A program made the position numbers and the translations under genes. A stretch of DNA of 64,000 nt from Escherichia coli (GTDB lineage: Bacteria > Pseudomonadota > Gammaproteobacteria > Enterobacterales > Enterobacteriaceae), in the NCBI RefSeq assembly GCF_003334335.1, contig NZ_QOWQ01000001.1; one strand, 5' to 3'. The notes below the pieces were generated by a model. The model was not told the DNA's origin, searched no databases, and saw nothing but the letters and a program-made list of their open reading frames with translations. Below, piece after piece: positions 38,627 to 41,497 of the stretch; the stretch's first letter is position 1; every line of letters begins with the position of its first letter.

Positions 38627-41497
38627 TTATATTTTTTCCAGCGCAGTGAGTATTTTCTCCGGTGTGAAATGCCATTCGCGTAACCAGATGCCGCATGCAT
38701 CGTGAATTGCGGTAGCAATCGCCGGAGCTGCGCCATTTACACCGATTTCCGAGATCGATTTCGCCCCGAACGGGCCGACTTTATCGTCGCTCGGCACCAG
38801 CACAGCGCGGAAATCACGCGGAATGTCACCAATTTTCGGTGCGCCGTAACTGCGTAAATCACGCGTTAACGGGTGACCTTCGGCGTCATAAATGATCTCT
38901 TCGCTCATACTGTGGCCGATAGCACGCAGGGTGGCACCGTAGATTTGTCCCAACGCTAACTCTGGATTGACCGGTGTACCGCAGTCCAGCAAGGCGTAGA
39001 ATTTATCCAGGCGGATTTCACCCGTACGCGTGTTGACGGCAACTTCAGCGAAGTTTGCGCCATACGGGAAGGCGAAATCAGGCGTGATATAACTGCCAGT
39101 TCCCACCAGTGAACCAAAGCCGGTGCCGGTTTCGCCTTTATGGGCAATATCCCCGAAACTAACTTCGCCTTTCTTGCCGCGCACGACGCCCGGCGTTGCC
39201 AGTTGAACATCTGCCACTGGCTCACCCAACATTTGCGCGCCGTGGAACAGAATTTTCTCCCGTAGATTTTCCGCTGCCAAACGCGCCGCGTTACCCGAGA
39301 AGCAAGTACCGGACGAGGCATATGCGCCTTTATCAAACAACGCATGATCGGTATCACCGGAGATAACATGCACGTCCTGCGGTGGGCAGTGCAGCACTTC
39401 TGCTGCCAGTTTCGTCACTACAGTATCCAGACCAGTACCAATATCCGCACCGCCAGAATGAACGATAAAGGTGCCGTCCGATTCCAGTTTGATCATGCAG
39501 TTAGCCTGATCGATATCCGGGATACCCGATTTCTGCATGATAATGGCGACGCCGCGACCGATGTGCCAGTCACCATTTTGCGGTTTCGGTGACGACCATT
39601 GGATCATCTCGCGACCCTGACGCAGGATCTCTTCCAGTGCACAGCTGGCGGCGGAAGGAACGGAGGTCGGCGCTTTACCTTCACCGATTGCACCGAGAAT
39701 TTTCAGCTCTTGCCCTTCGTGTACCCGGTTACGTTCGATAATTTCCAGTTGGTCGATCTGTAACTGTTCAGCCAGTTCCGCTAATGCCATGGTGATAGCG
39801 AAGTTACCTTTCGGTGCGCCATAACCCTGATAAGCACCATTTGGGCAAATGTTGCTGTAGTAGGTGGTGACCTGGAAATCGACGTTATCGCACGGATATA
39901 ACGGCAGCGACAGCGCCGGTCCGTTACACGGTACGGTGAGTGAGTGGTTGCCGTAAGGGCCAGTGTTGGCGCGGAAATCCATCTTCACTGCCGTCAGGCG
40001 ACCATCTTTTTTCGCTCCCAGTTTGACGGTGACTTTCGCGACGTGACGAGAGGTGTTAGCAATAAACTCTTCTTCACGGGTGTAGCGGAACAGTACCGGA
40101 CGCCCGGTCACGCAGGTTGCCCAGGCGCACACTTCTTCCAGCAGGATGTCCTGTTTGGAACCAAAACCGCCGCCAACTCGCTCTTTAATGACATGAACTT
40201 TATGCTGTTTCATGCCCACGAGGCGCGCGACCTGGCGGCGTAAGTGCCATGGTACCTGGGTGGAGGCGTGGATAACCAGACGATCGCCGTCCATACGAGT
40301 AAAGCAGATATGTGTTTCAGTCGGGCACTGCTGCGCTTGCGTTGAGTTATAGGTTCGCTCAATGATCACATCGGCATCGGCAAAGCCTTTGTCCATATCG
40401 CCAATATGACCATGAATACTGGCGGCGATATTTTTGCGAGGGCGAGAACCGATCGGGAAGTTGATGATCATATGCTCGCCGCGCTGGGCTGCATGGCTGT
40501 TATCGTCTTCCAGAGTATCTGGCGCACCAGCAACATACACCACCGGTTCATCGTGCACGACAGGCGCATCTTCCGCCATTGCTTCGTCGATCGACATTAC
40601 CGGCTTAAGCACTTCATATTCAACGTCGATGAGCTTCAGTGCTTCGAGCGCAATTTCTTCACTTTCTGCGACGACCGCAGCAACACGATCGCCGACGTGA
40701 CGCATTTTCTTGCCGAACATACGGCGGTCAAGCGGTGACGGTTCCGGTGCGCTCTGACCACCCGGGGTATAGTAGATATCCGGGCAATTCAGGTGAGTAA
40801 TAACGTGAACGACGCCCGGTAAGGCTTCAGCTTTGCTGACATCCAGATGAGTAATCAGTGCGTGAGCGTGTGGGCTACGTAACATTTTAATGACGCAGGC
40901 GTCAGCCGTTACGCGGTCTTCAACATAGCAGGGTTTCGCCTGCACCATTTTCGCGGCATCAGTTTTAGGATAATGCTTACCAATGACTTCTAGGTCGTCA
41001 CGGAAAGTCGGAGCGATATCAATGGTGGCCTGCGGATTATTTTTACGTGCAACCGCCAGTTCAATGACCTGATAGTATTGCTGCCAGCCAGCATCGCGGC
41101 TGAACAAACCAGAAAGCGCGTCGTCGATCTCTTCGCGGGTAGGTGCGGCGATGCGATCGAGAAGATCGGTGATAATCAGAGCTGCAGCTGGATCGTTATA
41201 ACCAGACTGCACCACGCCAACATCAACCATTGCCTGTTGAACCAGACTTAACTCGTTCCATTTGCCCAGAGATTCTGCGGTACGAATATCTGCCTTCTCT
41301 AACTGTGCGGCAATAAGCAAGGACGCGTTAACGATATTACCGTTAAAGATTATTGCGTCAGAACCGGCAAACCCGAAACCATCATCACTGTTGCGTACAG
41401 AGTGCATTCCCATGTTAAACAACAGCTTTTGCACGTTTTCGCCTGGATTAACGGTTAGCTCCTGAGGCGCGCCATTTAAAGTAAAGTGGATGATCAT
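38627..41497 (-). CDS. xdhD: Molybdopterin-dependent hydroxylase large subunit fused to a cysteine-less [2Fe-2S]-like N-terminal domain (putative hypoxanthine/purine oxidase)
   Basis: 956-aa ORF. The N-terminal 150 aa align with XdhC. The remainder is colinear with XdhA (GGGFGSKQD, MoCo-binding regions). There is a 4-nt overlap with ygfM. Confidence 0.92.
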   Translation of the reverse strand: MIIHFTLNGAPQELTVNPGENVQKLLFNMGMHSVRNSDDGFGFAGSDAIIFNGNIVNASLLIAAQLEKADIRTAESLGKWNELSLVQQAMVDVGVVQSGYNDPAAALIITDLLDRIAAPTREEIDDALSGLFSRDAGWQQYYQVIELAVARKNNPQATIDIAPTFRDDLEVIGKHYPKTDAAKMVQAKPCYVEDRVTADACVIKMLRSPHAHALITHLDVSKAEALPGVVHVITHLNCPDIYYTPGGQSAPEPSPLDRRMFGKKMRHVGDRVAAVVAESEEIALEALKLIDVEYEVLKPVMSIDEAMAEDAPVVHDEPVVYVAGAPDTLEDDNSHAAQRGEHMIINFPIGSRPRKNIAASIHGHIGDMDKGFADADVIIERTYNSTQAQQCPTETHICFTRMDGDRLVIHASTQVPWHLRRQVARLVGMKQHKVHVIKERVGGGFGSKQDILLEEVCAWATCVTGRPVLFRYTREEEFIANTSRHVAKVTVKLGAKKDGRLTAVKMDFRANTGPYGNHSLTVPCNGPALSLPLYPCDNVDFQVTTYYSNICPNGAYQGYGAPKGNFAITMALAELAEQLQIDQLEIIERNRVHEGQELKILGAIGEGKAPTSVPSAASCALEEILRQGREMIQWSSPKPQNGDWHIGRGVAIIMQKSGIPDIDQANCMIKLESDGTFIVHSGGADIGTGLDTVVTKLAAEVLHCPPQDVHVISGDTDHALFDKGAYASSGTCFSGNAARLAAENLREKILFHGAQMLGEPVADVQLATPGVVRGKKGEVSFGDIAHKGETGTGFGSLVGTGSYITPDFAFPYGANFAEVAVNTRTGEIRLDKFYALLDCGTPVNPELALGQIYGATLRAIGHSMSEEIIYDAEGHPLTRDLRSYGAPKIGDIPRDFRAVLVPSDDKVGPFGAKSISEIGVNGAAPAIATAIHDACGIWLREWHFTPEKILTALEKI

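Follow-up and report, generated by a model that had tools for sequence, protein, structure and literature searches.

The iron–sulfur module of Escherichia coli XdhD has lost all eight ligand cysteines and is conserved as a probable cluster-free scaffold

How does a xanthine oxidase family enzyme reduce urate when the iron–sulfur (FeS) wire between its flavin and its molybdenum (Mo) has lost every ligand? This question is raised by xdhD of Escherichia coli, which lies in the 64,000-nucleotide stretch of contig NZ_QOWQ01000001.1 (assembly GCF_003334335.1) analysed here, hereafter the window. The window is E. coli K-12 DNA, and its ygfM-xdhD stretch is 100% identical to that of strain MG1655. The xdhD open reading frame (ORF) has 956 codons and occupies positions 38627-41497 on the minus strand, as do all segments of xdhD, ygfM, ygfK and xdhABC located below; codons 1-150, the subject of this study, correspond exactly to positions 41048-41497. 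RefSeq names the product 'molybdopterin-dependent oxidoreductase Mo/Fe-S-binding subunit', and that of the adjoining ygfM (41494..42273; Pfam FAD_binding_5, NCBIfam TIGR03312) the subunit that binds flavin adenine dinucleotide (FAD). XdhD has been assigned as the reductase that converts urate to 2,8-dioxopurine (yanthine), the enzyme that opens the route by which gut bacteria break down uric acid anaerobically, and ΔxdhD strains accumulate urate and make no yanthine (PMC12507026).

XdhD residues 1-150 are homologous to the small FeS subunits of this family. BLASTP aligned them with XdhC, the canonical 2x[2Fe-2S] subunit used here as comparator (58845..59324; Pfam Fer2 and Fer2_2; eight ligand cysteines), with 47 of 141 positions identical (33%), 3 gap positions and an E value of 1e-22. 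Every block of the residue-for-residue alignment quoted in the original prediction, which was made from this DNA alone, was reproduced. Against solved structures, phmmer aligned XdhD residues 3-154 with residues 6-157 of 3hrd_D, the FeS subunit of selenium-dependent nicotinate dehydrogenase and the closest relative by sequence (E value 1.3e-17), with one single-residue gap only, at the first ligand motif. Five more solved [2Fe-2S] subunits aligned as well and placed identical XdhD residues at the ligand columns every time. Pfam Fer2_2 (PF01799; gathering score 30.3 bits) matched residues 73-145 over profile positions 1-74 of 75, scoring 47.1 bits when the full protein was used and 50.8 bits with residues 1-150 alone; Fer2 (PF00111), which scores 33.9 bits in XdhC, gave no match in XdhD at E values up to 1. 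The catalytic part of the protein (38627..40942), an a/b-hammerhead and two molybdopterin-binding domains by Pfam and NCBIfam, is that of a Mo subunit, with scores of 108.6 (PF01315), 245 (PF02738) and 230.6 bits (PF20256), all far over the cut-offs.

What the module lacks is its ligands. The beta-grasp (plant-ferredoxin-like) half, residues 1-72 (41282..41497), matches XdhC residues 7-77 and the solved FeS subunits and contains the former cluster II site, next to FAD. Here the Fer2 ligand set C-x4-C-x2-C ... C is replaced: residues 37-47, S-D-D-G-F-G-F-A-G-S-D (41357..41389), stand in place of the first three cysteines, with D38, A44 and D47 in the ligand columns, and Ser at codon 59 (41321..41323) stands in place of the fourth. 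The helical, Fer2_2-like half, residues 73-150 (41048..41281), contains the former cluster I site, next to molybdopterin. Its ligand set C-x2-C ... C-x-C is missing too: Q-S-G-Y-N-D-P-A (residues 97-104, 41186..41209) replaces Q-C-G-[FY]-C-T-P-G, and F-S-R-D-A-G-W (residues 132-138, 41084..41104) replaces C-R-C-T-G-Y, which leaves S98 and N101 at ligands 5 and 6 and S133 and D135 at ligands 7 and 8. XdhC ligands C44, C49, C52, C64, C103, C106, C140 and C142 are matched in XdhD by D38, A44, D47, S59, S98, N101, S133 and D135. BLASTP, phmmer and a third alignment method all arrived at these columns, in agreement with the eight replacements first proposed. XdhD has 16 cysteines, of which the first is C190 (none had been expected in roughly the first 185 residues); since residues 1-189 contain none, no realignment can provide a ligand. 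With all eight ligands gone the canonical Mo-FeS I-FeS II-FAD path cannot exist, as had been claimed for XdhD-YgfM; the two-cluster electron-transfer chain of the xanthine oxidase family is absent from XdhD, and we consider it very probable that the module is a cluster-free scaffold. NCBIfam TIGR03313 covers the protein over profile positions 1-951 of 951 (2122.8 bits; cut-off 1101.9) and, like RefSeq, gives the 'Mo/Fe-S-binding' name to both cysteine states alike; judging from the ligand columns, the Fe-S part of that name is wrong for cysteine-less members.

Candidate substitutes for the missing ligands were also considered. C190, C201 and C238 were rejected, since C190 and C201 are unconserved and C238 is also found in orthologues that retain all eight cysteines. 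A compensating FeS site in YgfM, comparable to the [4Fe-4S] cluster of 4-hydroxybenzoyl-CoA reductase, was rejected as well because the four cysteines of YgfM are unconserved; YgfM has no conserved cysteine motif.

The fold of the module was predicted with AlphaFold2 (AF2) from a 115-sequence alignment; an earlier model from 27 sequences (at least 75% identity; predicted local distance difference test, pLDDT, 61.9) was discarded. The retained XdhD model has a pLDDT of 92.2 and a predicted template modelling (TM) score of 0.93, with residues 1-150 at pLDDT 87-97, loops included. In the beta-grasp half, strands are predicted at residues 2-7, 10-15, 48-51 and 54-57 and a helix at 22-28 (pLDDT 91-97), and in the Fer2_2-like half helices are predicted at 85-93, 102-115, 121-128 and 139-153 (pLDDT 87-97). 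The model matched xanthine oxidase family structures at E values down to 1e-77. Its best global matches were the aldehyde oxidoreductases (MOP) of Desulfovibrio gigas and D. desulfuricans (1sij/1vlb and 1dgj), fused FeS-FeS-Mo enzymes on which it superposed with TM scores of 0.84/0.88 (1dgj) and 0.83/0.87 (1sij), whereas Mo-only subunits reached a TMq of just 0.70-0.71. From this difference, the N-terminal module is predicted to sit at the canonical place of a cluster-bearing module. MOP and XdhD share a single-chain layout of plant-ferredoxin-like domain, helical Fer2_2 domain, linker and Mo domains. In MOP eight cysteines hold two [2Fe-2S] clusters, and a FAD subunit is lacking; XdhD, in contrast, has no ligand cysteines and has a FAD partner, YgfM.

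Whether the loss of cysteine is conserved among orthologues was examined at two depths. The eight replacement residues hardly vary among 120 close homologues (at least 75% identity; Enterobacterales, Photobacterium, Paludibacterium), and they recur in three further 50%-identity cluster representatives. A genome scan with one genome per species returned 80 loci, and 49 of these, from five phyla, encode a cysteine-less XdhD (Sphaerochaeta, other Spirochaetales, Oscillospiraceae, Lachnospiraceae, Mogibacterium, Olsenella, Desulfobacteraceae, Photobacterium, Serratia and Escherichia). Across the 49 loci D38, D47 and N101 never change and S98 rarely does; the remaining ligand columns vary (column 2, A/T/C; 4, S/N/G; 7, S/I/N/V; 8, D/A/S). 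The loops that once held the clusters are the best-conserved stretches of the domain, with the consensus sVRdSDDxeGFaGSDt, aGvVQSaYNaPaAAL and FiRdaGY. Between E. coli and other genera the nonsynonymous divergence (dN) of the N-domain is 0.09-0.19; synonymous sites are saturated in all available pairs, so that the ratio of nonsynonymous to synonymous divergence is an upper bound only. The linker from the module to the hammerhead and Mo domains (residues 151-185; 40943..41047) is the fastest-evolving part of XdhD, with a dN of 0.12-0.48 against 0.06-0.21 elsewhere. When the ligand columns are set aside, the N-domain is conserved, relative to the Mo part, as much between cysteine-less pairs as between eight-cysteine pairs. 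Gut versions are abundant, single 90%-identity clusters holding 1913 and 3728 member sequences. By these measures the cysteine-less state is conserved and under strong purifying selection, and is not decay. The original prediction had offered a purely structural domain as one option; this option fits best, given the purifying selection, the confident canonical placement in the AF2 model and a degree of conservation equal to that of cluster-bearing orthologues.

These data also bear on a trivial explanation, namely that the missing ligands reflect decay in E. coli only, an artefact of sequencing or annotation, or an alignment error that conceals them. The name shared by RefSeq and NCBIfam might imply that ligands exist, and nothing else speaks for this explanation. 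No alignment places a cysteine before residue 190 and the three alignment methods agree, xdhD was found in 5178 of the 5426 complete genomes of E. coli, the same replacements are fixed in different phyla, the domain is under purifying selection, and the enzyme is genetically and biochemically active. We regard this explanation as having practically no chance of being correct.

Orthologues that retain all eight cysteines were found at 14 loci, in assemblies of Treponemataceae/Spirochaetaceae, Myxococcales, Planctomycetes and Burkholderiales. They are 55-81% identical to the eight-cysteine representative, P0124. Like XdhD, these proteins (for example those of L001-L011, L014 and L073, and P0124) are of XdhD-like length, are encoded as a ygfM-xdhD pair with the ygfM-type gene first, and are about 55-60% identical to XdhD in the Mo part. 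The pair often lies within the order ygfK-ssnA-ygeY-guaD-ygfM-xdhD-ygeW, and several are found beside ygfK, ssnA, ygeY and ygeW, just as cysteine-less xdhD is. Unlike XdhD, they have retained both clusters and, presumably with them, the canonical FAD-FeS-FeS-Mo path, and an adjacent xdhACB trio is rare among them. Remoter relatives in the same uricolytic context (L064-L072) are three-subunit enzymes of the usual kind, whose FeS subunit is a protein of its own. Because eight-cysteine orthologues share their operon setting with the cysteine-less ones, the comparison indicates that the loss of cysteine is derived and that the ancestor was a canonical FAD / 2x[2Fe-2S] / Mo enzyme. In E. coli the stop codon of ygfM overlaps the start codon of xdhD in the sequence ATGA (window 41494-41497), and an identical 4-nucleotide overlap (distance -3) was seen in many homologous loci of both cysteine states, which suggests translational coupling of the FAD and Mo subunits. 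One further protein, P0007, is a 1215-residue ORF call that is 100% identical to XdhD and carries an N-terminal FAD_binding_5 domain (43 member sequences from Logan assemblies); it resembles a YgfM-XdhD fusion and could be a frameshift allele or an assembly artefact.

Has such a loss happened more than once? A homologue search seeded with the representative P0126 showed that it has. In the clade of P0126 itself (16 protein clusters, Krumholzibacteria-type) cluster II alone is lost, the ligand columns reading D-G-D-[AVSG] and then C-C-C-C; a separate protein, P0328, shows the same half-loss (D-T-D-G, then C-C-C-C). Fifteen Chloroflexi proteins lack both clusters, with columns mostly D-[ST]-D-Q and S-N-D-E, and are surrounded by 89 fused FeS-Mo relatives in which all eight columns are Cys. 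Neighbour-joining on the Mo part gave bootstrap values of 100% for the XdhD clade and 99.5% for the cysteine-less Chloroflexi clade, and 0% for the grouping of every cysteine-less protein into one clade. Inside the XdhD clade the corresponding values were 0% for cysteine-less and 1.5% for eight-cysteine monophyly, and long branches make bootstraps unreliable there; independence is claimed solely between the XdhD clade, the Chloroflexi clade, the Krumholzibacteria clade and P0328. Between these four, the trees and ligand columns point to at least two independent complete losses and two lineages that lost the FAD-proximal cluster only.

The replacements chosen are similar. Asp occupies ligands 1 and 3 in all four lineages, and Ser and Asn occupy ligands 5 and 6 in two, the Ser/Asn pair of S98 and N101 being found also in the cysteine-less Chloroflexi clade. 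Transfer of the domain was considered as the source of these shared residues and was ruled out by the matrix of N-domain identities: with the ligand columns removed, the cysteine-less Chloroflexi domain shares 55% identity with its eight-cysteine neighbours, against 35% with the cysteine-less domains of the XdhD clade. The shared replacements are thus convergent, not transferred.

How, then, is the Mo re-reduced? Enroth et al. (2000) reportedly gave the spacings in bovine xanthine dehydrogenase (XDH) as about 14.7 Å between Mo and FeS I, 12.4 Å between FeS I and FeS II and 7.8 Å between FeS II and FAD. Once both clusters are removed, the gap between pterin and flavin is well over 20 Å, and tunnelling across it is orders of magnitude too slow for metabolism. 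The FAD on YgfM and the Mo on XdhD are most likely electrically uncoupled. If nothing redox-active is left between them, the Mo would have to be re-reduced through the substrate channel. The explanation that we favour as a whole, with a probability of about 0.5, therefore combines a cluster-free scaffold, uncoupled FAD and Mo, and re-reduction of the Mo through the substrate channel; taken by itself, delivery through the channel is a tentative proposal, with chances somewhat short of even.

In this explanation XdhD 1-150 would be the cluster-free remnant of a two-domain 2x[2Fe-2S] module that has kept its fold, position and length. Carboxylate, hydroxyl and amide side chains at the former ligand positions would hold the loops in shape; the two Asp residues would stand in for the net 2- charge of [2Fe-2S](Cys)4 and accept the backbone N-H bonds formerly aimed at sulfur. 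The module would serve as a scaffold and not as a wire, covering the pterin and carrying YgfM. A small two-electron (hydride-type) donor would enter by the substrate channel and re-reduce the Mo in a ping-pong cycle; candidate donors may be NAD(P)H itself, a dihydropurine, or another purine that the neighbouring XdhABC produces or consumes. If the FAD end of the wire was severed first, electrons of Mo(IV) would no longer leak to FAD, after which the second cluster would be dispensable, so that the FAD-side-first order of loss may reflect selection or tolerance for cutting this leak. A working analogy for such a wire-free cycle is the pyrogallol-phloroglucinol transhydroxylase of Pelobacter acidigallici, whose Mo takes electrons from one aromatic substrate and gives them to a second, with no external electrons and with its FeS clusters idle. 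It differs from XdhD in belonging to the dimethyl sulfoxide reductase-type family and in that its idle clusters are still present.

The behaviour of YgfM is the first difficulty for this explanation. YgfM is a clear member of its family (PF00941, 72.2 bits; TIGR03312, 489.7 bits). A ygfM-type ORF lies upstream of xdhD in 48 of the 49 cysteine-less loci, the remaining locus ending at a contig edge, and the FAD motifs AGG[ST] and RNxAT[IVL]GG[NE] are conserved, with occasional single-residue substitutions, in the 42 YgfM sequences from these loci that cover them. The four-cysteine gene, too, has a FAD_binding_5 gene overlapping its start, and another lies 2 kb upstream of a cysteine-less Chloroflexi gene. 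At matched divergence YgfM is conserved slightly less than in eight-cysteine lineages. In gut Spirochaetales and Oscillospiraceae, YgfM is often short (225-244 residues, mostly 225-234; L033-L035, L037-L039, L042, L045, L048, L050, L052, L056, L058-L060 and L062): about 35 residues of the C-terminal, CO_deh_flav_C-like domain are missing and the FAD motifs are kept.

In the Mo domain, cysteine-less and eight-cysteine proteins differ consistently at five columns only, and by this comparison the active-site chemistry at Mo is probably unchanged between the two states. One XdhD position, residue 885 (window 38843-38845), tracks the loss of the clusters. Eight-cysteine XdhD orthologues have Lys at this position, and eight-cysteine Chloroflexi relatives have mostly Arg; after the loss, Gly is found in cysteine-less XdhD and also in the Krumholzibacteria clade that lacks cluster II, and cysteine-less Chloroflexi proteins have His. 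Residue 885 may be a former electrostatic partner of cluster II.

Published biochemistry adds a second difficulty. ProtA-tagged XdhD brings down a protein of about 30 kDa, 'putatively YgfM', and this preparation forms 2,8-dioxopurine from urate and reduced nicotinamide adenine dinucleotide (NADH) (PMC12507026). If multi-turnover catalysis through the FAD of YgfM is what this assay records, FAD and Mo are not uncoupled. The assay was an end-point measurement by liquid chromatography-mass spectrometry with 10 uM enzyme and 1 mM substrates and no rate reported; the listed controls left out enzyme or substrate, omission of NADH not being explicit (PMC12507026). The identity of the 30 kDa band is likewise putative in that study, and XdhB (292 residues) is similar in size. 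A ΔxdhA strain left xanthine unconsumed, which argues against xanthine as an efficient reductant of XdhD; its medium held glucose, and glucose represses urate degradation by the wild type in LB (PMC12507026). The words '2Fe-2S' and 'cysteine', metal data and spectral data do not occur in PMC12507026.

Besides the NADH assay and the unconsumed xanthine, three features of the sequences weigh against uncoupling and channel delivery. YgfM is kept in every lineage that lost clusters, with FAD motifs intact and slight relaxation only, and this retention exceeds what a purely structural role needs. The column comparison revealed no new co-substrate site in the Mo domain. Finally, the convergent choice of Asp/Asp and Ser/Asn could equally well reflect a bound ligand or metal.

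Some of these facts support a different reading, in which the wire works by other means and electrons pass from NADH through the FAD of YgfM to Mo, either via a non-FeS redox centre or metal in the old cluster pockets or via a flavin docked near the pterin. NADH-dependent yanthine formation and the retention of YgfM and its FAD motifs are what this reading expects. It is also in keeping with the constraint still acting on both the pseudo-FeS domain and YgfM, and with the independent origin of the same polar residues in loops that are the best conserved of the domain. However, no low-potential electron relay with carboxylate, hydroxyl and amide ligands is known to us, which counts against it, and ligand columns 2, 4, 7 and 8 vary more freely than a metal site would lead one to expect. 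Loss began at the FAD-side cluster, and one clade has long kept cluster I; such an order is predicted by cutting a wire, not by rebuilding one. The published modelling also speaks against it, in that the complex was modelled in a canonical docking resembling Rhodobacter capsulatus XDH (PMC12507026), and a commentary, which states that YgfM 'provides the electron-transfer module', reports an AlphaFold3 interface score (ipTM) of 0.94. We judge a rebuilt wire to be unlikely.

A third possibility is that a separate FeS protein feeds electrons to XdhD, be it XdhC-XdhB (through sharing of the module or a supercomplex of XdhABC with XdhD-YgfM), YgfK, or YgfS/YgfT. In E. coli, xdhC belongs to xdhABC, 17.3 kb from xdhD, together with the genes for the FAD subunit (xdhB) and the Mo subunit (xdhA) of canonical xanthine dehydrogenase (59321..62507). 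Within 10 kb of xdhD, a full xdhA-xdhC-xdhB trio was present at 31 of 49 cysteine-less loci, mostly directly upstream of ygfM-xdhD on the same strand, and at 1 of 14 eight-cysteine loci (Fisher p 2e-4, uncorrected for shared ancestry). All 38 XdhC-like ORFs in the fetched loci keep their eight cysteines, and 31 of them are in cysteine-less loci. Further points for such a partner are an orphan FeS subunit and FAD subunit near the cluster-II-less locus, the possibility that the co-purified 30 kDa band is XdhB, and an older proposal in which YgfK is the Fe-S subunit of a YgfK-YgfM-YgfN enzyme (PMC2276186). The adjacency makes a functional link between cysteine-less XdhD and canonical xanthine dehydrogenase likely. 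Pathway logic suffices to explain it, though: XdhABC makes the urate that XdhD reduces. The trio is also missing, despite full 10 kb flanks, from seven cysteine-less loci (L023, L024, L027, L030, L031, L047 and the Chloroflexi locus L082). A ΔxdhA strain still forms yanthine, although xdhB and xdhC remain in it (PMC12507026).

The gene neighbourhood offers little else for this possibility. The FeS-rich flavoenzyme gene ygfK (43655..46753; NCBIfam TIGR03315), a candidate partner only, lies near both cysteine states and does not discriminate between them; its product has been described as the yanthine reductase (PMC12507026). No FeS gene, ferredoxin or flavodoxin was enriched near cysteine-less loci, with an overlap filter that may drop short ORFs; the genes that were enriched serve the pathway, transport and selenium handling only. 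Most directly, the XdhD module is predicted to occupy the canonical FeS site itself, and a cluster docked on the surface would lie too far from the pterin. With the canonical site filled in this way, a trans-acting FeS partner is less likely than a non-canonical route from FAD to Mo, and we hold it to be improbable. The suggestion in the original prediction that XdhC is borrowed in trans finds some favour in the neighbourhood of xdhACB, and the predicted structure makes it sterically unlikely at the canonical site. A cluster-free scaffold with uncoupled FAD and Mo, re-reduced through the substrate channel, continues to be the explanation that we prefer.

We compared XdhD with other systems in which related modules have been described. 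One group is E. coli XdhABC and other three-subunit xanthine dehydrogenases, with small subunits of the XdhC/CoxS/NdhS type: XdhC is a full-length homologue of XdhD 1-150, and XdhB is a homologue of YgfM. XdhD differs in having none of the eight ligands, in carrying the module on one chain with the Mo subunit, and in that urate is reduced at C6 in place of xanthine being hydroxylated (PMC12507026). A precedent for a cysteine-less ferredoxin fold is 1Y56, from among L-proline dehydrogenase-type oxidoreductases, in which a beta-grasp domain derived from a 2Fe-2S ferredoxin lost its cysteines and kept its loops within a flavoenzyme (PMC1949818). That domain belongs to another enzyme family, is single and lost its cysteines anciently, whereas XdhD lost both clusters of a defined chain and did so recently enough for eight-cysteine orthologues to survive. 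The searchable literature on XdhD, YgfM, ygfN and cysteine loss contained no mention of the missing ligands, and no case of cysteine loss from an FeS module in the xanthine oxidase family.

Several further observations were made at these loci. The mechanical ORF of ssnA (window 42324-43718; GTG start, 464 residues) overlaps the end of ygfK (43655-46753) by 64 nucleotides; NCBIfam SsnA models match from residues 23-24 of this ORF, and the true start is probably about 22 codons downstream of the mechanical GTG. In E. coli ECGI0523 (L044, CP178306.1, a complete-genome record), ygfK, ssnA, ygfM, guaD and ghxQ are split into short ORFs and xdhD is intact; the broken ORFs are probably assembly indel errors and not biology. 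At the Krumholzibacteria-type four-cysteine locus L081 (19657-22392, minus strand), an XdhC-like FeS subunit (149 residues, both domains) and an XdhB-like FAD subunit (277 residues) flank a 480-residue Big_7-domain protein beside a PALP gene, with no Mo subunit in view. Near the cysteine-less Chloroflexi gene of L082 are a luciferase-family gene, possibly F420-dependent, and, immediately upstream, a gene for a 464-residue protein without a Pfam match (4650-5531, minus strand, and 8601-9995, plus strand). A luciferase-family reductase takes the place of YgfK in Chloroflexota (PMC12507026).

Selenium and sulfur genes recur in this neighbourhood. Near cysteine-less or related loci we found genes for a SelD-like AIRS protein with an N-terminal Se/S-carrier domain, a class-V aminotransferase of the cysteine desulfurase or selenocysteine lyase type and a YedE-like Sulf_transp protein (L017 6454-7707, L048 19880-21073 and L053 15576-16679). 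The genes yqeB, yqeC and mocA are inside the window and also near many homologous loci. Haft and Self are said to have described, in 2008, selenium-dependent molybdenum hydroxylases that carry a labile selenium at Mo and are associated in genomes with yqeB, yqeC and selD. Judged by gene content, the neighbours seen here fit the idea of a selenium-dependent molybdenum hydroxylase.

What does the missing wire mean for this family? One possible, still doubtful, consequence is that the cysteine-less XdhD-type proteins are the first xanthine-oxidase-family enzymes to turn over without an internal electron-transfer chain, cycling Mo(VI)/Mo(IV) at the active site. Urate dehydroxylation would then be paired with the oxidation of a second small substrate, which may be a pathway purine, a dihydropurine or a nicotinamide, and separate lineages would have converged on an Asp/Asp and Ser/Asn 'cluster mimic' after cutting the FAD-side cluster first. 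Beyond the loss of ligands noticed earlier in E. coli, the analysis brings to light eight-cysteine orthologues in the same operon and independent losses with the same replacement residues. Eight-cysteine, four-cysteine and cysteine-less proteins form a natural series in which the role of the clusters in a reductive Mo hydroxylase can be compared directly. The product name 'Mo/Fe-S-binding subunit' has spread to thousands of genomes and is wrong for the cysteine-less members. The accepted picture of electrons passing from NADH through the FAD of YgfM to Mo rests on homology to xanthine dehydrogenase, whose two clusters are absent from E. coli XdhD, and the reported NADH-dependent urate reduction turns the missing wire from a curiosity into an acute problem. 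Probiotic strains meant to counter hyperuricaemia are being equipped with XdhD-YgfM (PMC12507026). The clusters are absent also from the abundant gut-bacterial versions, and this absence bears on kinetics, on the choice of electron donor and on the optimisation of flux.

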